In this document: piece by piece, positions 3,461 to 60,666 of the stretch | Numbering within the stretch: position 1 is the first letter of the stretch | Layout of the letters: each line of letters opens with the position of its first letter | Assembly: GCA_951406725.2 (NCBI GenBank) | Contig: OX597815.1 | Coordinates: 158,782,001 to 158,846,000, forward strand | DNA length: 64,000 nucleotides | Source: Octopus vulgaris | Taxonomy: Eukaryota | Direction of reading: 5' to 3' | Program-made: the position numbers and the translations under genes | Notes under the pieces: generated by a model | The model's database searches: none | The model's input: the letters and a program-made list of their open reading frames with translations, nothing else | Told to the model about the DNA's origin: nothing

Positions 3461-5726
3461 AGTGATGGTCGTGGTGGTGGCAGTGGTGGTGAGGGCGTAT
3501 GGAAAGACTGCTGCTCACAGTCCCATTATGACTACTACTATCACTACAACTCCGTTGACCTGGAGAAGTTAGCTGTTTGCGCCTGGCTAGTTTTCTGAAA
3601 TCTTATCACCATCTGCTTGCCTTCAGGTGATGAAGCTGCATGATTTAATCTTGTCATCCAAGCGCCACCATCACCGCCACCACCACCACCACCACCACCA
3701 CCATCACCAACACCACCACCACAACCACTACCACTACCATTATCACTGCCATTATCACTATCATCATCAACACCAACACCAAGCCCTTTTTGCCCCTTCT
3801 GTATTCTTCCTGCTAATAGCTTCTTCTCGCTGATTTAATGTTTCTGACCCCTTCACAACCTTACAGTGTAAGAGTTTAAGCCATCTTATTAAATCTCGAC
3901 AGTCTTCAAATATTAACCTCATACTTCCTTTTTCCTAGATTTAGCTTCAAAATAAGAACCGTAAGGAAGATTTTTCAGTTAGATCTTCATCTATGTTCTT
4001 TTATTTTATTGTATTATTCTATTCCATTGTATGCTCTTTTTCCTTTTTCGCAAAACTTATTTTCTTTTACTATTTTCCTTTTTATTTGAATTTTTCTCCT
4101 TTTGTATTTTTTTTCTAGTTCCACCACACTCTCCAGGCTGTGTAATCGTATTTTGTTCTCGTTTTATTATTATTATTAATAATTTATATACTATTTCCGT
4201 TTTTCTTCCCTTAACCGGTATATATTTTTCTCACTGTCTTTTCCTCGTCTTTCTTCCTACTATTTTATCTGATTTAGTTTCACCCTTATATTTTTCGACC
4301 CTCCATTTTTTCTAAAGCATTATATTTTCATAGACTTTTGTTGAAATTTATATAATGTACTAGAATAGCCCCTTGTACTAACAATGGATTCTAGCTAATG
4401 GTGCAAGCTCCCACACATTTTAGGTCATTTAAATACATCAGTGGCATATATTTTACGACGTCACAGAGTGAAAAAAGCAAAGATGATCTCGGCTGGATTC
4501 GAACTCAAAACTTAAAGGAACGCAACTAAGTGCCGCATTATAGTTAGTCCGACGCCCTTTCTGATTCTGCCAATTATTTGTCAACTCACTGCAAAGTAGA
4601 ATATTGGCTTCAAATTTTGGCACAAGGCCAGCAATTTCGAGGGAGGGAATAACTCAATTACATCGACCCCCAGTGTCCAAGTGATACTTATTTTATCGAC
4701 CCGAAAAGATGAAAAGTAAAGTTCGACCACACCGGCATTTGAACTCAGAACGTAAAGAGGGACACAATGCCGCTAAGCATTTTACCTAGCGTGCTAACGA
4801 TTCTACCAGCTTGCCGATGTAGAATATTGGTAATGGTAGAGTCGCAAGAGCATCGGATAGAACTCCTTGCGAAATTCTTTCTGACTCTCTTCACTCCAAT
4901 TTCAAATTCTGTCGAGGTCAATTCTTTTTAACCCTTCATGGATTGGTAAAGAAAGTACCTGTCAGATATTTGGGTCGGTCATCTATCTATCTAGCTATCT
5001 ATCTATCTACTCCTCTCGCCGTCAAAGTATATACCATCCCTTTCTTCCACACATACCATCCCTTTCTTCAGGAGCGGAAAAAAATTGAGTGAAATGGTAG
5101 CAACCTCATCTCATAGAACGAGTAATATTCTTCTGAAACGACCTAAAGACAGACTGATGAGCAGCTCAGCTTGAAAAGGGAATACACAGTAGCGTGAGGT
5201 GTATCACCCAGAGTTGCCCCTGAGCTTGCTGTTCCGTCTTGGGCCCCCAAACTTATCAAGCCCCCAAGCTTACTGCAGCAGACCCAAAAGCACCACCCCT
5301 ATAAAAGCATTGCCCGGGCGGTACTTGTTCTATCGAATCTTTTCCTGAACCGCTACGTTACGAATACGTAAACGCACCAACACTGGTTGACAAGTAGGTG
5401 GGGGGACAAAGACAGACACAAACACACATCAACATACGCGCGCGCGAACACCCTCTCACACTGCTTCTTTCAGTTTCCGTCTACCATATTCACTCACAAG
5501 GCTTTGGTCAGCCCGAAGCTACAGTAGAGGACATAAAAATTTATATATATGCACGTATGATATACTCTTTTTCTTGTTTCAGTTTCCGTCAACCAAATCC
5601 ATTCTCAAGGTTTTGGTCTGCCTGAGGCTATAGTAGAAGACACGCTCCCAAGGTGCCACGCAGTGGGATTGAACCAGGAACCATGGGATTGGTAAACAAG
5701 CTACTTACCACATAGCCACTCCTGTT

Positions 5727-9698: not shown

Positions 9699-10108
9699 TA
9701 TTTCTTTACTGCCAACTTAGAGGAGATAAACAAGGACAGACAAAGGGATTAAGTCGATTATATCAAACCCAGTGCGTAACTGGTACTTAATTTATCGACC
9801 CCGAAAGAATGAAAGGCAAAGTCGATCTCGGCGGAATTTGAACTCAGAACGTAGTGGCAGACGAAATACCTATTTCTATTTCTTTATTACCCACAAGGGG
9901 CTAAACATAGAGGGGACAAACAAGGACAGGCATAGGTATTAAGTCGATTACATCGACCCCAGTGTGTAACTGGTACTTAATTTATCGACCCCGAAAGGAT
10001 GAAAGCAAAGTCGACCTCGGCGGAATTTGAACTCAGAACGTAGCGGCAGACGAAATACCGCTAAGCATTTCACCCGGCGTGCTAACGTTTCTGCCAGCTC
10101 GCCGCCTT
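9699..10108 (-). mobile_element. SINE family B tandem dimer with 15-bp TSD
   Basis: Full monomer plus a 5'-truncated monomer; flanked by TTAACAGAGAATACC at 9684-9698 and 10109-10123. Confidence 0.85.
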
Positions 10109-13359: not shown

Positions 13360-13732
13360 TCAGATGGTACTTTATTTTATCGACCCTGAAAGGATGAAAA
13401 ACAAGGCCAGCCACGGCGCAATTTGAATTAAGAACGTAAAGACGGATGAAATGACCCTATGCATTTTGTCCGGTGTGCTGACGATCCTTACAATTTGTTG
13501 CCTTTTTAATAACAATAATTCTTTCTACAAGCGGCACAAAGCTTGAAATTTTTACAGGCGAGGGCTAGTCGATTATATCGATCTCTGTACTCAACTGGTT
13601 CTCATTTAACTCACCCTGAAAGGACCAAAAACAAAGTCGACCTCGGCGGAATTTGAACTCAGAACGTAAAGACGGACGAAATGTTGCTGAGCATTTTGTC
13701 TAGCATGCTAATGATTCTACCAGCTCACCGTC
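13360..13732 (-). mobile_element. Two SINE family B copies
   Basis: TCGACCTCGGCGGAATTTGAACTCAGAACGTAAAGACGG-type core occurs twice; followed by (AAT)n at 13755-13830. Confidence 0.7.
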
Positions 13733-13754
13733 TTAAAGATGATGATGATGATAA

Positions 13755-14519: not shown

Positions 14520-15105
14520 TTTTACTTGTTTCGGTCATTTGACTGAAGCCATGCTGAGGCAACGTTTTGAAGTGTTTTCTAAAAAATCAATCTCCTTTTT
14601 TCTAAACCGTAGTACTTACTTTATCAATCTCTTTTGGCGAACCACTAATGTACAGGGACATAAACACAAACACCAGTTGAAAAGCTGTGTTTTGGGACAA
14701 ACGCACACACACACACATATACGACAGGCTTCTTTCAGTTTCCGTCTACCAAATCCACTTACAAAAGTTTTTGTTGGCCCGAGACTCTAGTAGAAGACAC
14801 TTGAACCAGCTACCACGCATGGAACTGAACTCAGATCCATGTGAGTGAGAAGAAGCAAGCTTCTTAACACACAGCTTGCGCCTATACACACACAATATAT
14901 ATATTGGCAGAAACGTTAGCACACCGGGCAAAATGCCAAGCCGTATTTCGTCTGCTGTTACGTTCTGAGTTCAAATTCCGCCGAGGTCGACTTTGCCTTT
15001 CATCCTTTCGGTACCAGTTACGCACTGGGGTCGATGTAATCGACTTAATCCCTTTGTCTGTCCTTGTTTGTCCTCTCTGTGTTTAGCCCCTTGTGGGTAG
15101 TAAAG

Positions 15106-15110
<5 letters not shown>
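14520..15110. mobile_element. Family A SINE (minus, 14520-14885) adjacent to family B SINE (plus, 14905-15110)
   Basis: Similarity to other copies; the B copy ends AGCCCCTTGTGGGTAGTAAAGAAATA. Confidence 0.75.
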
Positions 15111-26580: not shown

Positions 26581-27062
26581 TGATTAGTATACCCTTGGTC
26601 ATACAACTGCTTAACAATGGCTAATCTAAGATAATACTCTTCTTCCTAGAAATAACAGTCAGTCTTCTTTAAAATTATACCTTGTTATCTTAAAAAATAC
26701 CGCATTTAGTCATATAGACCTAAATACACGTTGTACGATTAAGGGGCCGTGGTTACGGTTGCGGTGACTTTAATCGTAGCAAACTTAGAACAAATAACAA
26801 CTCATCAACAGTTTATTTTTTGAAAAGAACTTCCCGACTAATTTACCCTATTTCAGTTGGTTTTAACGTATTTAATTTAGGAAGGATTAAAAACAATCTA
26901 GGAAATATTTGTGGTGAAGGAGGGGAAAAAAGAGATATTAGCAACAGTAAAATATTATTCTGTCCTTCGGCAAGTACAAGCGACAACTCTAGGAATGTTT
27001 CAGTCTTATTGAACATCTTCAGCAGAGCATAAACTTTATCTTAAATGCCTAATTAAACATGA

Positions 27063-27492
27063 AGGCCGTGAGTTAGCAGAAACGTTAGCACGCCGGGCGA
27101 AATGCCTAGCGGAATTTCGTCTGCCGTTACGTTCTCAGTTCAAATTCCGTCTAGGTCGACTTTGCTTTCAACGTTTCGGGGTCAATAAATTAAGTGCCAG
27201 TTACGCTCTGGGGTCGATGTAATCGACTTAATCCCTTTGTCTGTTATTGTTTCTTTCCTCTATGTTTAGCCCCTTGTGGGCAATAAAGAAATAAGAAACG
27301 TTAGCACGCCGGGCGAAATGCTTAGCAGTATTTCGTCTGTCTTTACATTCAGAGTTCAAATTCCGTCGAAGTCGACTTTGCCTTTCATCGTTTCGGGGTC
27401 GATAAATTAAGTATCAGCTGTGTAATGGGGTCGATCTAATCGACTGGCCCCGCCCCCAAAATTTCGAGCCTTATGCCTAGAGTAGAAAAGAA
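27063..27492 (+). mobile_element. SINE family B tandem dimer
   Basis: A long-tail monomer ending CAATAAAGAAATA is joined to AGAAACGTTAGCACG of a short-tail monomer. Confidence 0.85.
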
Positions 27493-27829
27493 TTAATCAT
27501 GAGTGATTCACCTTTCTAATTGTACAATAACAAACATTCTTGGGCATAGAAAAATTAAAACACTAAAAGAATAATTTTCCCACGTACTGCATTGCATGAA
27601 AGAAAGCATTACTTTTAATACATTTAATGGAGAGTGCAATAAAAATCATACTGAGATAAAATATACGATGAAGGAAAAAAATGTCACTGACTTACGTTAT
27701 TTGGGGTCTTTCAGCACATACGAGTGCCATGTTTGGATATTTTCAGTTTACCGCCATCCTTTTTTGTCTTTTTTTTAATGTTGGTATGTTCCAAATAATG
27801 AAAGTACCAAAACTGGAATCATGATTATT

Positions 27830-30245: not shown

Positions 30246-30702
30246 ATATACATACATAAAGAGAGAAAGAGAGGGAGGTGGGAAAAGAGATGGAAAAAAG
30301 GGAGAGATTTAATGAGAGGCGCCTTTATATACCCAAATTCCATGAATATAAAGCTCATTAAAATCAACATTAGTTTAATTAATACCGACGCGTGTTATTA
30401 ATTTCAGCTTCCAGTATAATATTGCCATTCTTTAAATATTGAAATTGTAATATATATAACTTCATTTAGACTTATTTTTTAAATTTGATATTGAAAACTT
30501 AATGTTGAGAGCTTTAGGGAGCTTATGATCGAAACACCACACCCTCGAGTGCCTAGTGGGAGGGCGATGCAACACCAAGGTGTAGTGCATGAGGCTGAGG
30601 TGGTGACCGGCACTGGCGACAGTAGAGGCAGCGTTGGTAGCAACAGTAGCAACGGCACCACACTGCTCCCGCCAATAATGACAACAGAAACTATAAATGC
30701 AA

Positions 30703-30933
30703 GGCGGCGAGCTGGCAGAAACTTTAGCACGCCGGGCGAAATGCTTAGCAGTATTTCGTCTGTCTTTATGTTCTGAGTTCAAATTCCGTCGAGGTCGACT
30801 TTGCCTTTCATCCCTTCGGGGTCGATAAATTAAGTACCAGTTACGCACTGGGGTCGATGTAATTGACTTAATCTTTTTGTCTGTCCTTGTTTGTCCCCTC
30901 TCTGTATAGCCCCTTGTGGGCAATAAAGAAATA
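30703..30933 (+). mobile_element. Full-length family B SINE with 17-bp TSD
   Basis: GGCGGCGAGCTGGC...GAGTTCAAATTCC (box B-like)...CAATAAAGAAATA; AGAAACTATAAATGCAA at 30686-30702 and 30934-30950. Confidence 0.9.
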
Positions 30934-31269
30934 AGAAACTATAAATGCAACGGCGGCGGCGGTGGCAGTTCCACCAGCAGCGCATCAAGTAGCAGCGGCA
31001 GAAAAAACAACAGCAGCTCCAGCATCGCGTCCAGCAATAGAAGCAGCAACGGCAGGGATACATGGAGAAGCACTAAAAACGGGTCTGGCAGTGACAGCAG
31101 CTGCGGCAGTGATGACAGCAACAGCAGTTGTAGCACCACCAGCAGAAGGGCTGGAAATATGTCAGATCTACAGACATCCCTTAACAATCGTCTTAACAAT
31201 CATCGTCTTAACAATCATCTTCTTAACAATCAGAGATCCTCCTTTAGGTTACCAAAGGGGTGCAAAATC

Positions 31270-40509: not shown

Positions 40510-40865
40510 TTCTACTATAGGCACAAGGCCTGGATTTTTTGGGAATGGGGATAGTCAATGACATCAACCCCAGTGCTCAACTGGTGCCTAACTTATCGAC
40601 CCCGAAAGACTGAAACGCAAAGCGAAATTTGAGCTCAGAACGTAGCGGCAGACGAAATACCTATTTCTTTACTACCCTCAAGGGGCTAAACGCAGAGAGG
40701 ACAAACAAGGACAGACAAACGGATTAAGTCGATTATATCGACCCCAGTGCGTAACTCGTACTTATTTAATCGACCCCGAAAGGATGAAAGGCAAAGTCTA
40801 CCTCGGCAGAATTTGAACTCAGAACGTAGCGGCAGACGAAATACCGCCAAGCATTTCACCCGGCA
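40510..40865 (-). mobile_element. SINE family B tandem dimer
   Basis: Same junction as at 9870 (GACGAAATACC|TATTTC). Confidence 0.8.
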
Positions 40866-45099: not shown

Positions 45100-48000
45100 G
45101 AGCTTTATTTCGACGAAACAATATTTTATCGAAAAATTTCAGTGAAAGAAGTTCCCTGTTCAATACTCGCTGGCAGTGTTTAAATTAAGTTTTAAAAAAT
45201 GATGAAAATTTCGTCACCTTTGCCGGAGCGGTTCACAGAGAGTGTGAGAAACTCAAATTGAACATGTGTTTAATTTTTGTTCAAGGGTTTACTTCAAACA
45301 AAGATGCAGATATAAGATCCCGGATATTAACAAAATTAGAACAGGACCAACATTTTACTTTACAGGCAGTAGCAGAAGAAAGTCAGAGGATTATAAATCT
45401 ACGACATGACACAAATAAAATTGAAGAGAAAGATTGCTCTCATGTTCAACCGTGTCAACCGGTAACGGATAAGAAAAAATATCAAGACCAAATCCATGTT
45501 ACGAGTGCGGTGGTCTACATTTTAAAAATAACTGTTCCTTTAAAAATATGAAATGCTCAAATGTCGTAAAAAAATGGCCATAAAAAGTTGCATTGTGGGA
45601 TAGAACCTAAAAGAACGGTTCAACAGAAAAAATCACGTAAATGGGTTATCGGTGACAAGAATATGAACGAGTCTCAAAGGAAATTTGTGGATGTAAAAAT
45701 GAGTAACACAAATGTAAAGTTACAATTGGATACAGGCAGTGATATCTCAATAATAAACACAGATACATGGAGAAAAAAAATCGTGAGACCTAGATTGAAT
45801 GAAGCTCCGAAAATTACTCGTTGTGTTTAAGGAAAAACATTATATCTTAACGGTGAAATGATAAGTAACATTACATTTTGTTAAAAAAAAGCCTTAAAAG
45901 CTAAAGTTTTTGTGTTAAATAATACCGCAAATTTATTCGGTACTGACAAGATGGGATTATTTAAGTTATGAAACCTCCCCATAAATCTTTGTCAATGGTT
46001 TTTTCCTCCAATCGTCATTCGAATTGAAAATAAATTTTTTGATATTTTTCCTGGAGTTCTGTCTGATAAATTAAGTCTGTGTACCTAAATGGTGCGGTTT
46101 CAAATAAAAGAAAACGCCACACCAGTATTTAACCAAAAAACGAACTGCATCGTTCGCAGCATTAGAACAGATAAACTTAGAGTTACAGAGACTAGAAAAA
46201 ATTGGAATATAGTCAACGAGCATCATCAACTATGTTCGTTAAGGAAAAGAATACTGAAATCAGAATGTGTGCTAATTTTTCCACGGGTTTAAACGAATTC
46301 TTAAAACATGCCACCATCCGCTACCTACTCTAGAAGATATTTTTGTGAATTAAACGGGGACAAGATCTCTCGGATGCTTATTTACAAATTAGAGCAAACG
46401 ATGAATGCTCTAAATGCCTAATAATTAACACACATAAAGGACTGCATAAATACAGTAGGTTACCATTTGACTTAAAAGTTGCACTGGCGATTTTTCAATA
46501 GATTATGGATGCAATGGTAGCGGACTGTAAATTCGCAATTCTATATCTCGATGATATACTCATTAAAAGCGAAGCCAGGGAGCAACTCGCAGAGCACGTA
46601 AAATATGAGTTCGAAAAAAAATCAAGGATTATGGCTTAGTTTGAGTTAATAAAAGTGATTTTTTTCTTACCGAAAATAAGATATTTAGGACAAATAATTG
46701 ACAGGAATGGACGTCGACGGCAGACGCAATTAAAGATGTGCCCCCTCCGACAAATATAACGACCTGACAAGCATTTTAGGACTGGCAAATTATTACCAAA
46801 ATTATATTCCAAATATGCATAAAGTGAAGGTTCCACTGAGTAATCTACTGAAAAAAGATATATAATGTTATTGGCCGGAAAATTATCAAAAGGCCTTTGA
46901 CGAAATAAAAGAAATATTAACATCTGATTTGTCGTTAGCACACTTCGATCCTGCAGCGGAGACAGTTGTAGATTCAGACGCTTCTGAGTACGGTATAGGA
47001 GCAGTAATGCTACATAAGCATAAAGACGAAGACCGTGGTTCATGCCTCACGTTCTCTGATATCAGCAGAGAAAGATTATAGTCAAATCGAAAAAGAGGCT
47101 CTAGTGATTATTTTTGTCTTGAGAATTTTCACAGATTTTTACACGGTAGAAGTTTTCGTCTATAGATTGATCATCATCTATTATTATCAATATTTGGGTC
47201 AAAGAAAGAAATTCCTACCCATACTGCTAATAGGTTGCAACGCTGGGGTACGATATTATTAAAATATGATTTCAAGATGAAGCATATACCATCCAAGAGA
47301 TTAGGTCATGATGACTGTCTATCAAGACGATTTCGAAAAATGCAGAACCATTTGAAGATACCGTGATTGCTGCTTTGCGAGCAGAAAATGAAATTTAAAA
47401 TATTTTGTGTAACGTCATTCGTGAACTGCCAGTTACTTTACAAGGCACAAAATTAAAATCGGAAAGCTATAAATTTATTATAAAACTGAAAGAAATACTA
47501 GAGGCTAAAAGCGATAAAAATTTGCGCAAAACAACAGCGATCCATTTCTCACTGTCTGACAATGTGTTGAAGCATGCACAAAGAGTCGTAATGACAAAAG
47601 CGATTATTAAAGGAATTTCATATTAGTTACCCAGGTATTTCGAGAATGAAATCGTTAATGAGAAGTTATTTATACTCGCCAACAATGGACCGTGACATTG
47701 AAGAATCGGTGAAAACATGCAGAAGAAAACATGCCTTAGCTGCAAAAGCACCTACCACTAAATGACAACCGTAGCCAAAAACAAGTTCTATGGGCCAGAT
47801 TACGCAGGTCCACTTAAGGGTTCATATTACCTTGTTGTGGTGGATAGTTTTTCAAAGTGACCGGAAATGCATGAATGTAAAAAGCCAGCATCTGCGGTTA
47901 CACTAAATGTTTTACATGAATTGTTTACCAGGTATGGTTTTTACGGATCCCATTGTGTCTGATAACAGAGTACTCAATTTACGTCAGACGAGTTCATAAA

Positions 48001-48685
48001 ATTTCGTAAAATGTTCGTCATCGAATATGTCACTACCCCGCCCAATCATCCAAAGTCAAATGCACAAGCGGAGCGTTTTGTTGACACTTTCAAGAGGGCG
48101 TTGAAAAGGGCGAACAATAAAGTGATGGACAATTTTGCCCTTCAGTAATTTCTAAGAGTGTACCGAGTAACACCCAATCCGAATACACCGTCGGGAATGT
48201 CATCTGCAGAATTGATGTTTGCTAGAAATGTCAGATCCATCTTGGATAAACTGATATCTAGTGAAAAAAAAAAACGCGAACAACAAAAAGACTTCAAAAT
48301 TCTTCAAGTTAGGTAACAAGGTTGTTTTTTTTAAACCTAAAGATACGGTAAAGAAAGCTGGGAGGGCGGTGTAATTATTAAACAAATTGGAAGAATGATA
48401 TACTTGGTAAAAGGAAAAGTGTCGAATATAATAAAAGACATTAACAAACTTTAAAAAAGATTGACGGAAAAGACAGTCACGAGAAATTAATTCTCCTTGA
48501 AAGTATTGTACGACACGTTTGAAGTACCAACACTTAATTCGAAACTACACTTCTAGCAGCAGAAAACGGAAAAGAATGGAAACACTGGAATTGAACCTTA
48601 AGTGTAAGAGATATTAAAACTCTAGGCGGAGTTCAATTCTCAAAAAGGGAGAAGATAGGGGAGACTGATTCTAAAAAGGGGGAAA
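45100..48685 (+). mobile_element. Decayed Ty3/Gypsy LTR retrotransposon internal region (gag-PR-RT-RH-IN)
   Basis: Remnants in order: DIRSRILTKLEQD (gag), CYECGGLH knuckle, KLQLDTGSDISII (protease, 45720), YLDDILI (RT, 46545), DASEYGIGAV and YSQIEKEAL (RNase H), DYAGP...VVVDSFSK, VSDN, HPKSNAQAERFV (integrase). Many stops and frameshifts. Confidence 0.9.
48673..48685 (+). other. Polypurine tract of the Gypsy element
   Basis: AAAAAGGGGGAAA immediately before TGTTG, downstream of integrase. Confidence 0.7.
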
Positions 48686-48951
48686 TGTTGTAGAAGGATT
48701 CCGACCACCCACCAAGTGGCTAAATGTGAACTGACTCATTGTTATAAAACAAAGAACTGTGAGCGATTGGAAGTTTGAGTCGGTGAGCAGGATTGTTGTG
48801 TTATTTTTGCTCTCTGTGAAGTTCGGTAAAGGGAGGAGTGAATGGTTGTTGTTGTGAAGTTTTGAACATGGTTGATGCGGTTTCGCGTCTCACTGGTTCT
48901 GCGCGTTGCACTTTTTCGGTTCGGGAGGCCGTTTTTCGGTCTGAGGCGACT

Positions 48952-50280
48952 GTGAGCCGCCTCCATCAGGCGGAGGAGATGGAAGGGAGAATTTGCTCTG
49001 AGGTTTCGACGGAAGTATCGACATCTGAGGAGGGGTTGGTGGTGAGAGGGATGGAGGGCACCTGCGCAGGTGTAGCGAGGAGGACAGCGGAAGGAGGGAT
49101 GGACCTGGCTGGGTTGGCGGGCCTCCAGGGGTTTGTGAGGGAGGACGAGAGCGGTGAGGTTGAGCTGCTGCATCCGGTGGGGTGCGGAGACTGGTTCCAT
49201 CGTGGAACCATTAAGTGTGGAGTATTTATGAATGGAGGTGGAAGGATGGAAGTGATTGACATGGGAGCAATTGAGGAGGCTCTCAGGCGGACGGGAGAGG
49301 AAGTTGTGTGCATGACGGGGGGATTGCAGTGCGGAGCCGTGGCGGTGCAGTTTAGAAGTGAAGGGGCGGCCAGGAATGTGGCAGCCAGGGTGGTGAGTAC
49401 AGGGGGGATTTGCTTGTTACCCTCGTGTCTGAGTAGGCGGACAACCGGAATTGGGGTGGAGGGAGTGCCTCCACACCTAGAGGGCGAATTAATAACGGCT
49501 GCGGTTATAAAAGGAAATGAAGATAAAGTGGACATCCTCCACGCCATTATGAAGTATGAAGGCGTGAGAGGTGCCACACTAGTTATGAACATTCAAGCGG
49601 AGGCGGATGTTATAGAGAGGATTACGGACAGCATAAAAACTGGAAATATTATTATGAGAGTGTGGGTGGAGGGTAGGGCGCCCAGGTGCTACAAGTGTGG
49701 CCAAAGGGGTCACATAAGAGCCTACTGCACTCCCCCACCAAAGGAAAAAGAAAAGGAAAGCGTTGAGGAAGCCTCAAGAGAGGAAGAAAATAAACAGAAA
49801 CAAACAGAGAGGGAAACGACAGAAGAAGAGGAGATGCAACAAGAGTGGAAAGAAGGGGGAACAAAGAGAAAAAGAAAGAAAAAGAAAAACTGTGCGAAGC
49901 CCCAACCCACCCCGACACCACCCATACCCTTGGAGTCCCATCCTTCCCCTGCAAACAGTGATTCCACCCACTCCCCGCCTACAAGAAAAATAAAAACAGA
50001 CACACAGAGCAAAGAAAGTCCCAAGACCCATTTTTTATGTGTTATACATGGGAAAGACATACAAAACGTTAAAAAACTGGTGTTAACCAAGTGGTACGAA
50101 CACGAAGATTGGAGCTACACGGCTGTGGATAGTGATGATACGGGTATATTGGCGACAAGGTTTGAGGAAGAGGGTGTGTGTTGGAAGTCAGTGGAAATGA
50201 AAGATGAATGGATAGAGAGGGCTAAAAGAAAAACGAATGTTATGATAGATAAAACAGGAATACTAATTGGAAATGGGTGA
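48952..50280 (+). CDS. ORF1/Gag-like CCHC zinc-knuckle protein, copy 1 (A>G hypermutated 5' part; first ATG changed to GTG)
   Basis: Open frame 48838-50280; CYKCGQRGHIRAYC knuckle; many Y>C, K>R/G, I>V, T>A changes relative to copies 2-5. Confidence 0.7.
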   Translation: MSRLHQAEEMEGRICSEVSTEVSTSEEGLVVRGMEGTCAGVARRTAEGGMDLAGLAGLQGFVREDESGEVELLHPVGCGDWFHRGTIKCGVFMNGGGRMEVIDMGAIEEALRRTGEEVVCMTGGLQCGAVAVQFRSEGAARNVAARVVSTGGICLLPSCLSRRTTGIGVEGVPPHLEGELITAAVIKGNEDKVDILHAIMKYEGVRGATLVMNIQAEADVIERITDSIKTGNIIMRVWVEGRAPRCYKCGQRGHIRAYCTPPPKEKEKESVEEASREEENKQKQTERETTEEEEMQQEWKEGGTKRKRKKKKNCAKPQPTPTPPIPLESHPSPANSDSTHSPPTRKIKTDTQSKESPKTHFLCVIHGKDIQNVKKLVLTKWYEHEDWSYTAVDSDDTGILATRFEEEGVCWKSVEMKDEWIERAKRKTNVMIDKTGILIGNG

Positions 50281-50631
50281 AGAAGGACAGATAAGTGATG
50301 CTGGCGGATGGGGCCGTCGGTATCACTCTCATATATCATTTTCATATTCCATTTTGCTCATATATATGTAATTGTGATGTTCCATGTCCCCAATGTTTGT
50401 AACGTCCCCTCTATGTAGCCCCTAGTGGGTAATAAAGAAATCAGTTTGAGTCGGTAAGCAGGATTGTTGTGTTTTTTGCTCTCTGTGAAATTCGGTAAAA
50501 AGAAAAAAGAACAAAAAGTGAATGGTCGTTGTTGTAAAATTTTGAACATAGTTGATGCGGTTTCGCGTCTCACTGGTTCTGCGCGTTACACTTTTTCGGT
50601 TCGGGAGGCCGTTTTTCGGCCGGAGGCGACT

Positions 50632-51960
50632 ATGAGCCGCCTCCATCAAGCGGAGGAGATGGAAGGGAGAATTTACTCTGAAATTTCGACGGAAGTATCG
50701 ACATCTGAGGAGGAGTTGGTGGTGAAAAAGATGGAAGGCACCTACGCAGGTGTAACGAAGAAGTCAACGGAAAGAGAGATAGACCTGGCTAAGTTGGCGG
50801 GCCTCCAGGAGTTTGTGAAGGAGGACGAGAACGGTGAAGTTGAGCTGCTGCATCCAGTAGGGCGCGGAGACTGGTTCCATCGTAGAACCATTAAATATAA
50901 AGTATTTATGAATGGAGGTAGAAAGATGGAAGTAATTAACATGGAAGTAATTGAAGAGGCTCTCAAGCAGACAGGAGAGGAAATTGTGTACATGACAAAA
51001 GGATTACAATACGGAACCATAACGGTGCAATTTAAAAGTGAAAAAGCAGCCAGGAATGTAGCAGCCAAGGTGGTGAGTACAGAAAAGATTTACTTGTTAC
51101 CCTCGTATCTGAATAGGCGGACAACCAGAATTAGGGTGGAGGGAATACCTCCACACCTAGAGGGCGAATTAATAACGGCTGCGGTTATAAAAGGAAATGA
51201 AGATAAAGTGGACATCCTCCACGCCATTATGAAGTATGAAGGCGTGAGAGGTGCCACACTAGTTATGAACATTCAAACGGAGGCGGATGTTATAGAGAGG
51301 ATTACGGACAGCATAAAAACTGGAAATATTATTATGAGAGTGTGGGTGGAGGGTAGGGCGCCCAGGTGCTACAAGTGTGGCCAAAGGGGTCACATAAGAG
51401 CCTACTGCCCTCCCCCACCAAAGGAAAAAGAAAAGGAAAGCGTTGAGGAAGCCTCAGGAGAGGAAGAAAATAAACAGAAACAAACAGAGAAGGAAACGAC
51501 AGAAGAAGAGGAGATGCAACAAGAGTGGAAAGAAGGGGGAACAAAGAGAAAAAGAAGGAAAAAGAAAAACTGTGCGAAGCCCCAACCCACCCCGACACCA
51601 CCCATACCCTTGGAGTCCCATCCTTCCCCTGCAAACAGTGATTCCACCCACTCCCCGCCTACAAGAAAAATAAAAACAGACACACAGAGCAAAGAAAGTC
51701 CCAAGACCCATTTTTTATGTGTTATACATGGGAAAGACATACAAAACGTTAAAAAACTGGTGTTAACCAAGTGGTACGAACACGAAGATTGGAGCTACAC
51801 GGCTGTGGATAGTGATGATACGGGTATATTGGCGACAAGGTTTGAGGAAGAGGGTGTGTGTTGGAAGTCAGTGGAAATGAAAGATGAATGGATAGAGAGG
51901 GCTAAAAGAAAAACGAATGTTATGATAGATAAAACAGGAATACTAATTGGAAATGGGTGA
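50632..51960 (+). CDS. ORF1/Gag-like CCHC zinc-knuckle protein, copy 2 (442 aa from first ATG)
   Basis: TYAGV motif, RRM-like RIRVEGIPPHL segment, V.V.G.AP-CX2CX4HX4C, acidic tract, KRKRRKKK NLS-like stretch and Pro-rich linker; typical of Tx1/L1-type ORF1p. Frame is open from 50464. Confidence 0.85.
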   Translation: MSRLHQAEEMEGRIYSEISTEVSTSEEELVVKKMEGTYAGVTKKSTEREIDLAKLAGLQEFVKEDENGEVELLHPVGRGDWFHRRTIKYKVFMNGGRKMEVINMEVIEEALKQTGEEIVYMTKGLQYGTITVQFKSEKAARNVAAKVVSTEKIYLLPSYLNRRTTRIRVEGIPPHLEGELITAAVIKGNEDKVDILHAIMKYEGVRGATLVMNIQTEADVIERITDSIKTGNIIMRVWVEGRAPRCYKCGQRGHIRAYCPPPPKEKEKESVEEASGEEENKQKQTEKETTEEEEMQQEWKEGGTKRKRRKKKNCAKPQPTPTPPIPLESHPSPANSDSTHSPPTRKIKTDTQSKESPKTHFLCVIHGKDIQNVKKLVLTKWYEHEDWSYTAVDSDDTGILATRFEEEGVCWKSVEMKDEWIERAKRKTNVMIDKTGILIGNG

Positions 51961-52311
51961 AGAAGGACAGATAAGTGATGCTGGCGGATGGGGCCGTCGG
52001 TATCACTCTCATATATCATTTTCATATTCCATTTTGCTCATATATATGTAATTGTGATGTTCCATGTCCCCAATGTTTGTAACGTCCCCTCTATGTAGCC
52101 CCTAGTGGGTAATAAAGAAATCAGTTTGAGTCGGTAAGCAGGATTGTTGTGTTTTTTGCTCTCTGTGAAATTCGGTAAAAAGAAAAAAGAACAAAAAGTG
52201 AATGGTCGTTGTTGTAAAATTTTGAACATAGTTGATGCGGTTTCGCGTCTCACTGGTTCTGCGCGTTACACTTTTTCGGTTCGGGAGGCCGTTTTTCGGC
52301 CGGAGGCGACT

Positions 52312-53640
52312 ATGAGCCGCCTCCATCAAGCGGAGGAGATGGAAGGGAGAATTTACTCTGAAATTTCGACGGAAGTATCGACATCTGAGGAGGAGTTGGT
52401 GGTGAAAAAGATGGAAGGCACCTACGCAGGTGTAACGAAGAAGTCAACGGAAAGAGAGATAGACCTGGCTAAGTTGGCGGGCCTCCAGGAGTTTGTGAAG
52501 GAGGACGAGAACGGTGAAGTTGAGCTGCTGCATCCAGTAGGGCGCGGAGACTGGTTCCATCGTAGAACCATTAAATATAAAGTATTTATGAATGGAGGTA
52601 GAAAGATGGAAGTAATTAACATGGAAGTAATTGAAGAGGCTCTCAAGCAGACAGGAGAGGAAATTGTGTACATGACAAAAGGATTACAATACGGAACCAT
52701 AACGGTGCAATTTAAAAGTGAAAAAGCAGCCAGGAATGTAGCAGCCAAGGTGGTGAGTACAGAAAAGATTTACTTGTTACCCTCGTATCTGAATAGGCGG
52801 ACAACCAGAATTAGGGTGGAGGGAATACCTCCACACCTAGAGGGCGAATTAATAACGGCTGCGGTTATAAAAGGAAATGAAGATAAAGTGGACATCCTCC
52901 ACGCCATTATGAAGTATGAAGGCGTGAGAGGTGCCACACTAGTTATGAACATTCAAACGGAGGCGGATGTTATAGAGAGGATTACGGACAGCATAAAAAC
53001 TGGAAATATTATTATGAGAGTGTGGGTGGAGGGTAGGGCGCCCAGGTGCTACAAGTGTGGCCAAAGGGGTCACATAAGAGCCTACTGCCCTCCCCCACCA
53101 AAGGAAAAAGAAAAGGAAAGCGTTGAGGAAGCCTCAGGAGAGGAAGAAAATAAACAGAAACAAACAGAGAAGGAAACGACAGAAGAAGAGGAGATGCAAC
53201 AAGAGTGGAAAGAAGGGGGAACAAAGAGAAAAAGAAGGAAAAAGAAAAACTGTGCGAAGCCCCAACCCACCCCGACACCACCCATACCCTTGGAGTCCCA
53301 TCCTTCCCCTGCAAACAGTGATTCCACCCACTCCCCGCCTACAAGAAAAATAAAAACAGACACACAGAGCAAAGAAAGTCCCAAGACCCATTTTTTATGT
53401 GTTATACATGGGAAAGACATACAAAACGTTAAAAAACTGGTGTTAACCAAGTGGTACGAACACGAAGATTGGAGCTACACGGCTGTGGATAGTGATGATA
53501 CGGGTATATTGGCGACAAGGTTTGAGGAAGAGGGTGTGTGTTGGAAGTCAGTGGAAATGAAAGATGAATGGATAGAGAGGGCTAAAAGAAAAACGAATGT
53601 TATGATAGATAAAACAGGAATACTAATTGGAAATGGGTGA
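52312..53640 (+). CDS. ORF1/Gag-like CCHC zinc-knuckle protein, copy 3
   Basis: Translation identical to copy 2. Confidence 0.85.
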   Translation: MSRLHQAEEMEGRIYSEISTEVSTSEEELVVKKMEGTYAGVTKKSTEREIDLAKLAGLQEFVKEDENGEVELLHPVGRGDWFHRRTIKYKVFMNGGRKMEVINMEVIEEALKQTGEEIVYMTKGLQYGTITVQFKSEKAARNVAAKVVSTEKIYLLPSYLNRRTTRIRVEGIPPHLEGELITAAVIKGNEDKVDILHAIMKYEGVRGATLVMNIQTEADVIERITDSIKTGNIIMRVWVEGRAPRCYKCGQRGHIRAYCPPPPKEKEKESVEEASGEEENKQKQTEKETTEEEEMQQEWKEGGTKRKRRKKKNCAKPQPTPTPPIPLESHPSPANSDSTHSPPTRKIKTDTQSKESPKTHFLCVIHGKDIQNVKKLVLTKWYEHEDWSYTAVDSDDTGILATRFEEEGVCWKSVEMKDEWIERAKRKTNVMIDKTGILIGNG

Positions 53641-53993
53641 AGAAGGACAGATAAGTGATGCTGGCGGATGGGGCCGTCGGTATCACTCTCATATATCATT
53701 TTCATATTCCATTTTGCTCATATATATGTAATTGTGATGTTCCATGTCCCCAATGTTTGTAACGTCCCCTCTATGTAGCCCCTAGTGGGTAATAAAGAAA
53801 TCAGTTTGAGTCGGTAAGCAGGATTGTTGTGTTTTTTGCTCTCTGTAAGAAATTCGGTAAAAAGAAAAAAGAACAAAAAGTGAATGGTCGTTGTTGTAAA
53901 ATTTTGAACATAGTTGATGCGGTTTCGCGTCTCACTGGTTCTGCGCGTTACACTTTTTCGGTTCGGGAGGCCGTTTTTCGGCCGGAGGCGACT

Positions 53994-55322
53994 ATGAGCC
54001 GCCTCCATCAAGCGGAGGAGATGGAAGGGAGAATTTACTCTGAAATTTCGACGGAAGTATCGACATCTGAGGAGGAGTTGGTGGTGAAAAAGATGGAAGG
54101 CACCTACGCAGGTGTAACGAAGAAGTCAACGGAAAGAGAGATAGACCTGGCTAAGTTGGCGGGCCTCCAGGAGTTTGTGAAGGAGGACGAGAACGGTGAA
54201 GTTGAGCTGCTGCATCCAGTAGGGCGCGGAGACTGGTTCCATCGTAGAACCATTAAATATAAAGTATTTATGAATGGAGGTAGAAAGATGGAAGTAATTA
54301 ACATGGAAGTAATTGAAGAGGCTCTCAAGCAGACAGGAGAGGAAATTGTGTACATGACAAAAGGATTACAATACGGAACCATAACGGTGCAATTTAAAAG
54401 TGAAAAAGCAGCCAGGAATGTAGCAGCCAAGGTGGTGAGTACAGAAAAGATTTACTTGTTACCCTCGTATCTGAATAGGCGGACAACCAGAATTAGGGTG
54501 GAGGGAATACCTCCACACCTAGAGGGCGAATTAATAACGGCTGCGGTTATAAAAGGAAATGAAGATAAAGTGGACATCCTCCACGCCATTATGAAGTATG
54601 AAGGCGTGAGAGGTGCCACACTAGTTATGAACATTCAAACGGAGGCGGATGTTATAGAGAGGATTACGGACAGCATAAAAACTGGAAATATTATTATGAG
54701 AGTGTGGGTGGAGGGTAGGGCGCCCAGGTGCTACAAGTGTGGCCAAAGGGGTCACATAAGAGCCTACTGCCCTCCCCCACCAAAGGAAAAAGAAAAGGAA
54801 AGCGTTGAGGAAGCCTCAGGAGAGGAAGAAAATAAACAGAAACAAACAGAGAAGGAAACGACAGAAGAAGAGGAGATGCAACAAGAGTGGAAAGAAGGGG
54901 GAACAAAGAGAAAAAGAAGGAAAAAGAAAAACTGTGCGAAGCCCCAACCCACCCCGACACCACCCATACCCTTGGAGTCCCATCCTTCCCCTGCAAACAG
55001 TGATTCCACCCACTCCCCGCCTACAAGAAAAATAAAAACAGACACACAGAGCAAAGAAAGTCCCAAGACCCATTTTTTATGTGTTATACATGGGAAAGAC
55101 ATACAAAACGTTAAAAAACTGGTGTTAACCAAGTGGTACGAACACGAAGATTGGAGCTACACGGCTGTGGATAGTGATGATACGGGTATATTGGCGACAA
55201 GGTTTGAGGAAGAGGGTGTGTGTTGGAAGTCAGTGGAAATGAAAGAGGAATGGATAGAGAGGGCTAAAAGAAAAACGAATGTTGTGATAGATAAAACAGG
55301 AATATTAATTGGAAATGGGTGA
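53994..55322 (+). CDS. ORF1/Gag-like CCHC zinc-knuckle protein, copy 4
   Basis: As copy 2 with C-terminal D>E and M>V. Confidence 0.85.
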   Translation: MSRLHQAEEMEGRIYSEISTEVSTSEEELVVKKMEGTYAGVTKKSTEREIDLAKLAGLQEFVKEDENGEVELLHPVGRGDWFHRRTIKYKVFMNGGRKMEVINMEVIEEALKQTGEEIVYMTKGLQYGTITVQFKSEKAARNVAAKVVSTEKIYLLPSYLNRRTTRIRVEGIPPHLEGELITAAVIKGNEDKVDILHAIMKYEGVRGATLVMNIQTEADVIERITDSIKTGNIIMRVWVEGRAPRCYKCGQRGHIRAYCPPPPKEKEKESVEEASGEEENKQKQTEKETTEEEEMQQEWKEGGTKRKRRKKKNCAKPQPTPTPPIPLESHPSPANSDSTHSPPTRKIKTDTQSKESPKTHFLCVIHGKDIQNVKKLVLTKWYEHEDWSYTAVDSDDTGILATRFEEEGVCWKSVEMKEEWIERAKRKTNVVIDKTGILIGNG

Positions 55323-55673
55323 AGAAGGACAGATAAGTGATGCTGGCGGATGGGGCCGTCGGTATCACTCTCATATATCATTTTCATATTCCATTTTGCT
55401 CATATATATGTAATTGTGATGTTCCATGTCCCCAATGTTTGTAACGTCCCCTCTATGTAGCCCCTAGTGGGTAATAAAGAAATCAGTTTGAGTTGGTAAG
55501 CAGGATTGTTGTGTTTTTTGTTCTCTGTGAAATTCGGTAAAAAGAAAAAAGAACAAAAAGTGAATGGTTGTTGTTGTAAAATTTTGAACATAGTTGATGC
55601 GGTTTCGCGTCTCACTGGTTCTGCGCGTTACACTTTTTCGGTTCGGGAGGCCGTTTTTCGGCCGGAGGCGACT

Positions 55674-57002
55674 ATGAGCCGCCTCCATCAAGCGGAGGAG
55701 ATGGAAGGGAGAATTTACTCTGAAATTTCGACGGAAGTATCGACATCTGAGGAGGAGTTGGTGGTGAAAAAGATGGAAGGCACCTACGCAGGTGTAACGA
55801 AGAAGTCAACGGAAAGAGAGATAGACCTGGCTAAGTTGGCGGGCCTCCAGGAGTTTGTGAAGGAGGACGAGAACGGTGAAGTTGAGCTGCTGCATCCAGT
55901 AGGGCGCGGAGACTGGTTCCATCGTAGAACCATTAAATATAAAGTATTTATGAATGGAGGTAGAAAGATGGAAGTAATTAACATGGAAGCAATTGAAGAG
56001 GCTCTCAAGCAGACAGGAGAGGAAATTGTGTACATGACAAAAGGATTACAATACGGAACCATAACGGTGCAATTCAAAAGTGAAAAAGCAGCCAGGAATG
56101 TAGCAGCCAAGGTGGTGAGTACAGAAAAGATTTACTTGTTACCCTCGTATCTGAATAGGCGGACAACCAGAATTAGGGTGGAGGGAATACCTCCACACCT
56201 AGAGGGCGAATTAATAACGGCTGCGGTTATAAAAGGAAATGAAGATAAAGTGGACATCCTCCACGCCATTATGAAGTATGAAGGCGTGAGAGGTGCCACA
56301 CTAGTTATGAACATTCAAACGGAGGCGGATGTTATAGAGAGGATTACGGACAGCATAAAAACTGGAAATATTATTATGAGAGTGTGGGTGGAGGGTAGGG
56401 CGCCCAGGTGCTACAAGTGTGGCCAAAGGGGTCACATAAGAGCCTACTGCCCTCCCCCACCAAAGGAAAAAGAAAAGGAAAGCGTTGAGGAAGCCTCAGG
56501 AGAGGAAGAAAATAAACAGAAACAAACAGAGAAGGAAACGACAGAAGAAGAGGAGATGCAACAAGAGTGGAAAGAAGGGGGAACAAAGAGAAAAAGAAGG
56601 AAAAAGAAAAACTGTGCGAAGCCCCAACCCACCCCGACACCACCCATACCCTTGGAGTCCCATCCTTCCCCTGCAAACAGTGATTCCACCCACTCCCCGC
56701 CTACAAGAAAAATAAAAACAGACACACAGAGCAAAGAAAGTCCCAAGACCCATTTTTTATGTGTTATACATGGGAAAGACATACAAAACGTTAAAAAACT
56801 GGTGTTAACCAAGTGGTACGAACACGAAGATTGGAGCTACACGGCTGTGGATAGTGATGATATGGGTATATTGGCGACAAGGTTTGAGGAAGAGGGTGTG
56901 TGTTGGAAGTCAGTGGAAATGAAAGAGGAATGGATAGAGAGGGCTAAAAGAAAAACGAATGTTGTGATAGATAAAACAGGAATACTAATTGGAAATGGGT
57001 GA
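55674..57002 (+). CDS. ORF1/Gag-like CCHC zinc-knuckle protein, copy 5
   Basis: As copy 2 with V>A, T>M, D>E and M>V. Confidence 0.85.
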   Translation: MSRLHQAEEMEGRIYSEISTEVSTSEEELVVKKMEGTYAGVTKKSTEREIDLAKLAGLQEFVKEDENGEVELLHPVGRGDWFHRRTIKYKVFMNGGRKMEVINMEAIEEALKQTGEEIVYMTKGLQYGTITVQFKSEKAARNVAAKVVSTEKIYLLPSYLNRRTTRIRVEGIPPHLEGELITAAVIKGNEDKVDILHAIMKYEGVRGATLVMNIQTEADVIERITDSIKTGNIIMRVWVEGRAPRCYKCGQRGHIRAYCPPPPKEKEKESVEEASGEEENKQKQTEKETTEEEEMQQEWKEGGTKRKRRKKKNCAKPQPTPTPPIPLESHPSPANSDSTHSPPTRKIKTDTQSKESPKTHFLCVIHGKDIQNVKKLVLTKWYEHEDWSYTAVDSDDMGILATRFEEEGVCWKSVEMKEEWIERAKRKTNVVIDKTGILIGNG

Positions 57003-59512
57003 AGAAGGACAGATAAGTGATGCTGGCGGATGGGGCCGTCGGTATCACTCTCATATATCATTTTCATATTCCATTTTGCTCATATATATGTAATTGTGAT
57101 GTTCCATGTCCCCAATGTTTGTAACGTCCCCTCTATGTAGCCCCTAGTGGGTAATAAAGAAATCAGTTTGAGTTGGTAAGCAGTTTACTGTGAGCCGTGG
57201 TAGAGAGGGGGTGAGTCTCATGTAATAGTAATAGTAGTGCGTGGTGTAAACGCTTTCTTTTTCCCTGCTCCATTATATTATATGTCCAATACAAAGATAA
57301 AAAATATCGAGCAAATACTCCTGAGAACCACGATGAAAACTAATTCCTATTTAAGTTACGATGCTTCCATTTACTTTCAGTCTCTAAGTTGTGTCTTAAT
57401 TCAGATATAACATTCGAAATTCATAATAGGTATTCTTACAGTGTCATAAGGCCACCAAATTAAGAAGTGTGAGGCTGATTCTATCAAACGCTTCTGGTAT
57501 TTAATTTATTGTTTTTCAGGGAGGAAAGATAACGTTCATAATGGTGGATTTTAAAATGAAAACTTAAACGAACGTAACGAAAATACCTTTCCGAATTTTA
57601 TCAATTTTATCAAATTTTACTTACTGGAACGATTGTAGAGATGCCGTTTTATTCACACTGAACTGCTTTCCGGATATACCTTACATAAAATATCTACTTG
57701 AGAGTAGGATATGGCCTCCAAACTAACCCTCGGTTAAGTCTGGAGACATTACTTTGAAAAAAGCCGATGGGAAAGAAAAAGCATTACCTCTGTGTTTTCA
57801 GTCCTGTCTACAATATTACTGCATCTCTTCGACCCACCATCATTAATGGATGGATGGATGGAAGTATAACTACCATCTCGTCTGCCTATACTTTTTCTTC
57901 ACTGGGCATACTTACGCATTGATTCTCAGATCAATATAAACGCTCGCACATATATATGTTTAGAGATGATTATTGAAATGTTCATTAGTTACTAAAGCAA
58001 AAATAGATACGAAAAATATCGATATTGATCATGATTAAATACACGATCAAGAAAACTGCCATGTACCCCCGTGTTCTATCCTCACAAAAGAAAAAAAAAA
58101 CGTAATAGAGTGGTCTTCGAAATGGATTCTGCTGAAAACAGGATCCATCTACACATGATAACATCCATTGGTTTTCATTTCACAAGTAAACAACAAAGTC
58201 ATTGAAGGGAAGAAACACTGGTCTTAAACGTGTACATGGAAGCTGGTTTGTCATCTTCACAGACACGTCTAGATGGTTTCATTACCATACCTATACAGCT
58301 TATCCTAAACTAAGAGTGATCGTCAACGTTAGCGTAAGCCAAGTGTATTTTGCCAATTATTCTGAAAAATATTCAAGAAAAATATGCTCACACTATCCTC
58401 GTCAATCCCCGAAGGAACCTCTAGTATATCGTCACTTATGCTCTACGCTAACTTTCTATAAAATACAACCAACCATATTATTATCAAGATAGTAGTGGTA
58501 TTTAAATGTTTTACCAGAAACCAGATACCAAGTGCCCATTATTGATCTACAGCGGTTGAATCAATCAAATAAATCGTGATAAACAAACCAAATCTAGTAA
58601 AGAACAAGTAGACTTAATCACCTTCCAGAAATGTCTGGATTTTGTAACCCCATTACAGACTTTCTCATCATCAGCCTTGGTATTCTAAGGATCCCATGAA
58701 ATCAGTGTTACAGCAAATGAACTTTCTGACCAAACCTGTTCTTTTACGGCAACCAATGTGGCAGGTTTATAGATCTCGTTAGATATTTCATTGGGTAAGT
58801 GAGATATGGGGTCCAGAGAGTATCACATCACTAAATTAATGGAGAGGTTAATCATCTTAACGTGTCATTCCAGAAGCAACAACTTCATTTTAGTCCATTT
58901 CTAAGAATAATCATCCTGCACATCCCTTCGTCATCGTTCCTATCCATCTGGTGGAGTTTTAGCATGCAAGAGCAAAATGCTTAGCGGCATTTCGTCCGTC
59001 TTTACGTTCTAAATTCAAATGCCGCCAGGGTCGACTTTGCCTTTCATCTTTTCGAGAATGATCTAAGTACCAGTTGAGTACTGGGATCGATGTAATCGAC
59101 TTAGCCCCTCCCACGAAAGAAACCAATATTGTTTTAAAATATGAACAGTTTTACTAAGTCATCTGCCTGGCGACAAATAATGACCACCATGCACAAGGAC
59201 TTTCAATTATTTCAGAGTATCTTTTGATCGTGCCCGTCTTCAATAGTGAAACGACTTCTTGGCTCAAATAACTAAAGCTTCTGCAATATAAGTTCCAACC
59301 AAAGTACGAGTGAACAATTTTGGTATGTTTAAATGATAGGTTTTCTAGGGGGAAACGATCTTTCAGTCTTAGAGGTTTGCACTCCGTGTAATAGCTGATC
59401 AGTATATCAACTACATAGAGCGCCGCCGCAAATTTTTCACGCCATTTTCTTGAAAACCGTCGCTCTTCTATTAAACTGTACACGCCAACTTCTTCCTCTT
59501 GTTGGAGATTAA

Positions 59513-59732: not shown

Positions 59733-59939
59733 TTAAAGATAAGGTTTGTAGTTGAGAAAGGCGGGTTTTTTTTATTGCAGATTGTTACCTTCTCTTCACG
59801 GCTGATAGCTATGAAAGAATGGTCTGATCATTCTAACAATTGTAGTTGCTTTGAATCTGGTGAACGGTGCTTTCCGAAAATTCAGAGGCCGAATTCTGTG
59901 TGACCAGAGTACATATTTTGAATATTATTTTTCTTGGTA

Positions 59940-60607
59940 AGCTGGCAGAATCGTTAGCACACCGGATAAGATGCTTAACGGCATTTCGTCTATCTTTACG
60001 TTCTGCGTTCAAATTCCGCCGTGATCGACTTTGCATTTCATCTTTTGGAGGTCGATAAAATAAGTACCAGTCAAGCACAGGATCGATTTAATCAACTCGC
60101 CGCCTCCCTCAAATTTTCATGCCTTGTGCCGTTGATGTTACCATTTTTATGGCAATTGTTGGGATAGTTTGTCAATAAATAGCTGTTAACAAGATTACAA
60201 TTATATTTTCAGGCAGGAAGTGTAGGTTCAGTGCCCAATCACGGCCAGCTTTGTCTTTTATTCACCCGAGATCAATAACAAAAATAATAGTATTATTGTA
60301 TAGTAAAGTGAATCACTCAATTCCTATCCAAGAAGAAAAGAAATATCTAGGTTGCTAGTCAAAAATAATATTTATACAAATATAAAGGCGGCGAGCTGGC
60401 AAAATCGTTAGCATGCCGGGCAAAATGCTTAGCGGCATTTCGCCCGTCTTTACGTTCTGAGTTCAAATTCTGCCAAGGTCGACTTTGCCTTTCATCCTTT
60501 CGATAAATTAATGGTCGATAAATTAAGTACCACTGAAACATTGGGATCAATGTAATCGATTTGTCCCCTCTCCCAAAATTTCAGGCCTTGTGCCTATAGT
60601 AGAAAAG

Positions 60608-60666
<59 letters not shown>

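Follow-up and report, generated by a model that had tools for sequence, protein, structure and literature searches.

The 64,000-nt stretch of Octopus vulgaris DNA analysed here (the window) contains five tandem copies of a ~1.68-kb unit with one open reading frame, encoding one protein per unit, together with copies of a short repeat, SINE B, and the question that this locus raises is which enzyme copies two such sequences that finish in the same 3' tail. The initial annotation proposed a three-part system of an unseen autonomous LINE, an ORF1-only element and a very abundant SINE, all using one reverse transcriptase (RT). The features from which this proposal can be assessed are as follows.

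9714-9870: partial second SINE B unit after the copy at 9878..10108
9878..10108, minus strand: SINE B copy with tRNA-like head, core and shared tail
14905..15109, plus strand: SINE B copy, 5'-shortened and with an internal deletion
27062..27292, plus strand: SINE B copy
30701..30932, plus strand: SINE B copy
40663..40864, minus strand: SINE B copy, 5'-shortened, missing from the initial annotation
48791..50442, plus strand: ORF1-only unit 1, with ORF 48820-50280 open
50400..50442, plus strand: shared 3' tail of unit 1, top stem GCCC 50418-50421 / GGGT 50427-50430
50462..52122, plus strand: ORF1-only unit 2, with ORF 50458-51960 (protein of 442 aa starting at the ATG at 50632, with two RRM-like domains and a CCHC knuckle)
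52142..53802, plus strand: ORF1-only unit 3
53822..55484, plus strand: ORF1-only unit 4
55504..57164, plus strand: ORF1-only unit 5, with the most private differences among units 2-5

Within the window, the tail of unit 1 (50404-50441) matches that of the SINE B copy at 9917-9878 on the minus strand with 92.5% identity over 40 columns (E 3e-9, for a search of the window), and those of the copies at 15070-15109, 27257-27295 and 30893-30935 with 85-87%; the fifth SINE B tail lies at 40688-40663. All five tandem units end with this sequence, at 50442, 52122, 53802, 55484 and 57164, so that the common tail first proposed is borne out by 5 of 5 units and five SINE copies, and the small GCCC/GGGT stem before AATAAA is likewise present, at 50418-50430. 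A 24-nt degenerate pattern of the tail finds 99,865 exact matches across the 2.8-Gb genome, against none for the reversed control, and the sharing is therefore not due to chance. When the matches are taken in contig order, SINE B accounts for 29 of the first 30, the remaining one being a tail only, in agreement with the great abundance claimed for it.

SINE B is a short (~231 nt), non-coding, high-copy repeat with target-site duplications (TSDs) and a LINE-derived tail; A- and B-box-like motifs can be recognised by eye in its head, and neither ARAGORN nor Rfam gave a match for the SINE or for four 3' UTR loci. A TSD of 8-18 nt directly follows the tail at 12 of 30 loci examined and follows a second unit at six, while seven have no TSD and five show probable chance matches. 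The repeat often runs into a second unit that starts ~50 nt into the head, forming tandems of 184-nt period, and since the TSD at those six loci is found only after the last unit, such multimers seem to move as one piece. Most of the TSDs start with GGT, i.e. the bases after the tail, which suggests priming by 3-5 nt of microhomology. Sister SINEs at 4540-4820, 13460-13740, 27294-27560, 59935-60200 and 60380-60660 of the window have the SINE B head and core in common and a tail of another kind, which implies that tails have been exchanged and that there is another partner LINE.

The protein of the ORF1-only unit carries a CCHC knuckle that scores slightly below the Pfam cut-off, and the AlphaFold model obtained from an alignment of 10 rows with 18 invariant columns (pLDDT 77) resembles tandem-RRM proteins. 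Links in the ESM Atlas, at 0.90-0.93, to RNA-binding clusters of CCHC and ZCCHC3 type are taken as a lead only. A search of protein databases with the window ORF1, covering proteins of near length, gave no match, and L1 ORF1p was not among the sequence matches of ORF1 to solved structures. The family is dispersed, with 40 of 40 scored DNA hits and 150 of 150 scored protein hits being full matches and lying on many contigs, and a 3' UTR pattern for two of its subfamilies (cl0/cl1) has 446 exact matches genome-wide (control 0). Between knuckle and tail, 114 of 130 ORF1 cores have no ORF2 match, the others being 13 LINEs and three unresolved cases. At least four such ORF1-only families exist, with 30-60% mutual identity, and every copy and family examined ends in the tail; we refer to them as half elements.

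A tree of 23 dereplicated ORF1 cores (two rows unlabelled, unrooted, and with long branches that meet) places 14 half-element rows on one side of a branch (support 92/90) and seven LINE rows on the other. Values of dN/dS are 0.10, 0.15, 0.28, 0.16 and 0.12 in five half-element pairs and 0.50 in a sixth measurable pair, which involves the edited unit 1 described below; three further pairs are saturated. Because they occupy a separate branch and have low dN/dS, the half elements are old, separate ORF1 lineages under purifying selection, and not fresh deletions. Selection on ORF1 at the level of the copy would be most easily explained by an ORF1p that acts on the RNA encoding it, and the earlier suggestion that the ORF1-only element supplies ORF1p in trans becomes the less likely option, given a dN/dS of 0.10-0.28 in five of six measurable pairs. 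The unit is covered by contigs of four sequencing runs (run type guessed), which is not evidence of transcription. Runs under three organism labels contain 20-60% of the unit's sampled words, so that related half elements may not be confined to one species.

The autonomous LINE that the initial annotation had predicted does exist. We searched the genome with the L1-type C-terminal zinc domain (zf-RVT) and fetched the best 30 of 150 scored matches, of which 19 have the hairpin tail ~250 nt past the ORF2 stop; in a FastTree phylogeny of 28 rows (two loci being too short) the tail-bearing ORF2s form one side of a branch with support 85. One full-length family, LINE-A, encodes an ORF1 of 445 aa and an ORF2 of 1128 aa with APE, RT and zf-RVT domains, all above the Pfam cut-offs (PF03372, PF00078, PF13966). 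The tail is found in at least three LINE families (A, B and D), the ORF2 of LINE-B being ~72% identical to that of LINE-A, and a 3' UTR pattern for LINE-A and LINE-B has 297 matches. The solved structure nearest to LINE-A ORF2 is human L1 ORF2p (E 4e-66, compared with 4e-26 for R2), the nearest named relative comes from Argonauta, and neither cluster look-up nor the ESM Atlas returned a named Tx1 reference. By sequence, then, the putative partner is an autonomous LINE of the L1/Tx1 group whose closest solved relative is L1. The ORF1 of LINE-A is homologous to the window protein (35% identity over 221 aa, E 5e-40), and on C1 one LINE-A immediately precedes a copy of the window's element. Two further observations concern other LINEs: an intact LINE-C, which lacks the hairpin tail, is arranged at C2:73044000-73068500 in a tandem array of its own, the 5.4-kb units being spaced by a short duplicated motif; and an unrelated LINE with an open RT-coding frame (Pfam RVT_1, E 4e-30; ~25% identity to LINE-A ORF2) lies at 15785-17617 of the window, interrupted on its 5' side by an N gap.

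The tail of SINE B agrees best with different LINE families along its length. Its last 26 nt have 23-25 matches to LINE-A, 20-22 to LINE-B and 23-24 to the window unit, whereas the 32 nt upstream agree with a fourth family, LINE-E, at 28-30 positions as against 18-23 for LINE-A, B and D. A narrow pattern search for LINE-type ends with the upstream part of SINE B gave 16 matches, none of them a LINE with the GCCC hairpin. Since the upstream part fits LINE-E and no LINE with both parts was found in that search, the SINE B tail looks to be a mosaic, or to derive from an unsampled or extinct family. The claim that all elements use one RT is consequently not supported as worded, the tail being present in LINE-A, B and D and the upstream part of the SINE being closest to LINE-E, and it is here softened to one RT group.

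For the arrangement of the units, the following features are needed.

48686..57293, plus strand: host LTR-like repeat split by the five-unit array, ~215 nt without the insertion
48772..48790, plus strand: 19-nt TSD, repeated at 50443, 52123, 53803, 55485 and 57165

The five ~1.68-kb units stand head to tail in 48772-57183, with the 19-nt motif between units and flanking the array; relatives of the flanking LTR-like repeat (19 other loci printed) carry this motif once, which identifies it as a TSD. Upstream of the split LTR, at 45189-48685, lies a decayed Ty3/Gypsy-like internal region with protease, RT and integrase-like motifs by eye. Relative to unit 2, unit 1 carries 92 substitutions, of which 83 are A>G and nearly all fall in the 5' 860 nt, one A>G change lying inside the 5' TSD copy. 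Outgroups have A at these sites, and the combination of A>G excess with a depleted 5' G (p 4e-10) and an enriched 3' G (p 0.03) is an ADAR-like pattern, so that unit 1 is hyper-edited. A dimer at C10:73.27 Mb is laid out in the same way, a 16-nt TSD being sandwiched between its units and the 5' unit having 116 A>G changes. An edited unit is also found inside the C5 array (L016), and editing is therefore not always a mark of the 5'-most unit; further hyper-edited half-element copies (L015, L016) have the edited stretch placed differently in each. Unit 5 is likely to be the original insertion, because it has the most private differences among units 2-5, and our reading of the array is one of RNA-templated growth, or conversion, at its 5' end. 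The TSD-plus-start tag of the window recurs at one other place only, inside an array on C3, which indicates that the window locus or a daughter acted as a source. An element with a related style of tail in the L112:1500 region sits at nearly the same position of the window array's LTR family, hinting at a weak preference for this LTR site.

The target of the window array differs from that used by most of the half elements surveyed. We chose 20 dispersed loci from the 150 matches, all of one subfamily (91-94%), and extended 15 of them; 18 of the 20 lie at one site of a ~1.1-kb repeat that we take to be Helitron-like from its end motifs, one lies elsewhere and one is unresolved. Conversely, the 30 best copies of the repeat's right half comprise 19 empty sites, one rearranged and 10 filled, of which seven have LINE-B tails at their end, three half-element tails and none SINE B (four of these 10 loci were already in the sample). 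The share for half elements, 18 of 20 loci of one subfamily, exceeds the 20% of flanks in one repeat that serves elsewhere as a criterion of target preference (PMC4494074), a measure counted here on half-element loci and on LINE-B at 7 of 10 filled sites. The absence of SINE B from all 10 filled sites, although it supplies 29 of 30 sampled tails, is a further point against a single RT. As the host halves are 1.8-5.5% from their nearest relatives and most inserted units are 0.1-1% apart across contigs, the insertions are independent and took place after dispersal of the host. Chains comprise up to ~20 units with families mixed; at this site the half elements have no TSD and a target loss of up to ~12 nt, and leader-derived tags reappear at internal junctions, features that would fit transcription from the flank followed by 5' joining through homology. 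A second recurrent junction motif, behind LINE-B2, cl4 and LINE-A tails (L093, L155), may mark another target repeat. Two proposals about the arrays were rejected: the gaps of 5.1 kb that interrupt the arrays on C5 and C8 do not hide a LINE, being further half units, and the sequence after many trains is not another element family, being the right half of the Helitron-like target. TSDs, where they could be compared as the initial annotation had recommended, have overlapping lengths, i.e. 16-20 nt for LINEs (6 of 20 loci by script and one by eye, the remainder lying in chains or unresolved), 16-19 nt for the two half-element arrays above and 8-18 nt for SINE B.

Such chains might also arise if half elements were 5' passengers of a LINE, carried along by template jumping or in read-through composite transcripts, with the arrays then growing by unequal exchange at the DNA level. 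Many junctions do leave only 0-3 nt between a tail and the unit that follows, 5' tags of other loci occur at internal junctions (including the C3 copy with the window's TSD), and the 6.8-kb higher-order period of the C5 array points to DNA-level duplication in some arrays. Against this, five half-element trains have no LINE at the target (C6a, C12a, C2x, C1x, C8x), a local TSD stands between the units of the window and C10:73.27 Mb arrays, and at C17x and C3z the distance to the nearest relative is 0.1-0.5% for the half element as compared with 1.6-2.0% for the LINE behind it. Pure template jumping is weakened by the LINE-free trains and the sandwiched TSDs, and we consider the passenger account as a whole unlikely.

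At the 3' ends of the half elements, two predicted structures are of interest in addition to the tail.

50294..50327, plus strand: upstream 3' UTR hairpin with 14-bp stem and GGGG loop at 50308-50313, in half elements and LINEs and not in SINE B
50388..50392, plus strand: CCCCA run complementary to the GGGG loop, predicted to pair with it at long range

Structure prediction makes the GCCC/GGGT stem the upper part of a longer, interrupted hairpin with AATAAAGA as its 3' arm, which folds from the last 34 nt of the window unit, SINE B, LINE-A, LINE-D, cl1 and two of three LINE-E ends. Among 234 tails, collected without requiring the 3' arm, this arm reads GGGT in 222 and GGGC in eight, with a variable loop. 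The top stem of LINE-E is different, two double-sided changes preserving its pairing, while the 4-bp top stem of the group of LINE-A, LINE-B, half elements and SINE has one-sided changes only. Farther upstream, a G4 run at -130 to -210 is accompanied by a C4 run at ~-52 to -85 in 23 of 27 non-SINE 3'-end clusters, the long-range pairing being absent from the other four; among 16 chosen representatives the G run is predicted to lie unpaired within a hairpin loop in 10, to be mostly unpaired in two and to be locally paired in four. Of the 15 stem positions of the upstream hairpin, 12 pair in all of seven half-element variants and the other three show double-sided changes. The bases flanking the G and C runs covary by family, cognate helices having a mean of 6.1 Watson-Crick pairs and cross-group combinations 5.1, a difference reached in 17 of 10,000 permutations of rows that are not independent. 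In LINE-A and LINE-B the C run falls within the loop of its own hairpin, a predicted kissing-loop layout, and LINE lineages that lack the hairpin have an altered yet complementary pair by eye (GGGTTC with GAACTC), their G run not being predicted in a loop. The GGGG-loop/CCCC module is absent from SINE B.

The tail could nevertheless be a mere 3'-processing or polyadenylation signal, ORF2 being relaxed like mammalian L1 and the likeness of the tails a relic of common origin. This would account for the terminal AATAAA, it agrees with the nearest solved relative being the relaxed human L1, and the SINE copies that continue beyond the tail, with the TSD only after a second unit (6 of 30), indicate that priming need not begin at the tail end. 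However, nearly all copies examined are without a poly(A) tail, a Pol II signal would be useless to a Pol III-type SINE and yet ~100,000 tails retain it, AGTAAA is frequent among the genome-wide matches listed, and compensatory change preserves the hairpin in LINE-E and LINE-D, so that we hold this explanation to be quite improbable. That the unit's tail is a 5'-truncated SINE B inserted behind the ORF, as its 37/42 identity to a very abundant repeat might suggest, has next to no likelihood and is refuted by the presence of the tail in all half-element copies and families examined and in the LINEs, which end at one point, family-specific variants (e.g. cl4 has that of LINE-B) and TSDs enclosing unit plus tail also speaking against such a later insertion.

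Taken together, the shared tail, the TSDs and the shared target argue for use of the LINE enzyme in trans, and we regard it as likely that the half-LINE and SINE B are reverse-transcribed by ORF2p of the LINE group through recognition of the terminal hairpin, with ORF1p acting in cis and chains forming at preferred targets. The 1.68-kb unit is a non-autonomous half-LINE encoding ORF1p alone. The LINE-group ORF2p, probably a set of related proteins and not a single enzyme, would reverse-transcribe the RNAs of the half element and of SINE B in trans, choosing templates by the terminal hairpin in a stringent type of recognition with no poly(A) tail; both the trans-mobilisation and the dependence on the hairpin are deduced here from sequence comparison. 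The half element's ORF1p would package its own RNA in cis and carry it into LINE particles, which could be why its ORF1 stays intact. LINEs and half elements, and not the SINE, would fold the second signal, in which the GGGG loop meets the CCCC run, and would have a preference for certain target sites, at which successive insertions build up head-to-tail chains; the window array probably grew by RNA-templated re-insertion at its own 5' TSD, the edited unit 1 being the latest step. A bolder extension is a two-part 3' code, in which the hairpin calls the RT and GGGG/CCCC kissing between half-LINE and LINE RNAs hands over new ORF2p. This is possible but doubtful; if true, such an RNA handshake would explain why half elements and LINEs, and not the SINE, pile up in chains.

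HeT-A forms head-to-tail arrays, as the octopus half elements do, and animal L1-clade elements are textbook relaxed retrotransposons. HeT-A, HAL1 and Ag-Sponge are described, in the available portions of two papers, as non-autonomous LINEs in which ORF1 is present (PMC5786205, PMC5753468), and the octopus half element resembles them as there portrayed in being LINE-derived, in encoding ORF1p only and in needing ORF2p in trans. It differs in that its ORF1 consists of two RRM-like domains and a CCHC knuckle, as opposed to the mammalian L1 type, in the hairpin tail without poly(A) that is common to LINEs and SINE, in comprising at least four families at 30-60% ORF1 identity, and in having interstitial, not telomeric, arrays. 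It is not a HAL1 in the strict, mammalian L1-derived sense, its ORF1 relatives being the octopus genome's own LINEs.

Closer in targeting are the crocodilian Tx1-Mar LINEs with SINEU and the Xenopus Tx1 in Tx1D, for which the accessible text of PMC4494074 describes a preferred site within a DNA-transposon repeat, passengers at the same site, tandems that sandwich a TSD and proposed transcription from the flank, all of which have counterparts in octopus. The crocodilian link, according to that text, consists of shared targets and heads, with SINEU carrying poly(A), whereas the octopus link is a shared hairpin tail. In octopus the site belongs to a Helitron-like repeat, the passengers there are half elements that code for a protein, and the sampled loci show avoidance of the site by the SINE. 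An octopus repeat annotation of 2026 gives 13 L1-Tx1 families as recently active (PMC13282606), and half elements and tail pairing are absent from the available parts of its text and from its supplement text; the octopus CORE-SINEs OR1/OR2 are named in the available parts of PMC4824008 and PMC4758252. A literature search, with Repbase and subscription papers outside its range, found no description of the three-tier system or of the long-range pairing. What is new is that LINE and half-element 3' UTRs keep the predicted complementarity of GGGG-loop hairpin and CCCC run with family-specific covariation, a specific candidate signal that is directly mutable.

A single genome thus combines intact LINEs, old half-LINEs of several families and a SINE of 100,000 copies under one short hairpin tail, and these are natural variants for testing template choice by L1-type RTs and ORF1 retention in HAL1/HeT-A-like elements, and the set also bears on how non-autonomous RNAs overcome cis preference. 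The nearest parallels in template recognition are the stringent L1-clade pairs of maize (ZmSINE2/3 with LINE1-1_ZM) and Chlamydomonas (SINEX-3_CR with L1-1_CR), in which, from the available portions of PMC3472496 and PMC3747384, an L1-clade LINE and a SINE have a conserved 3' stem-loop in common, as in octopus. Those portions list only three SINEs with L1-clade tails, all plant or algal; the octopus case, in contrast, is animal, comprises ~100,000 tails and has the additional tier of half-LINEs.
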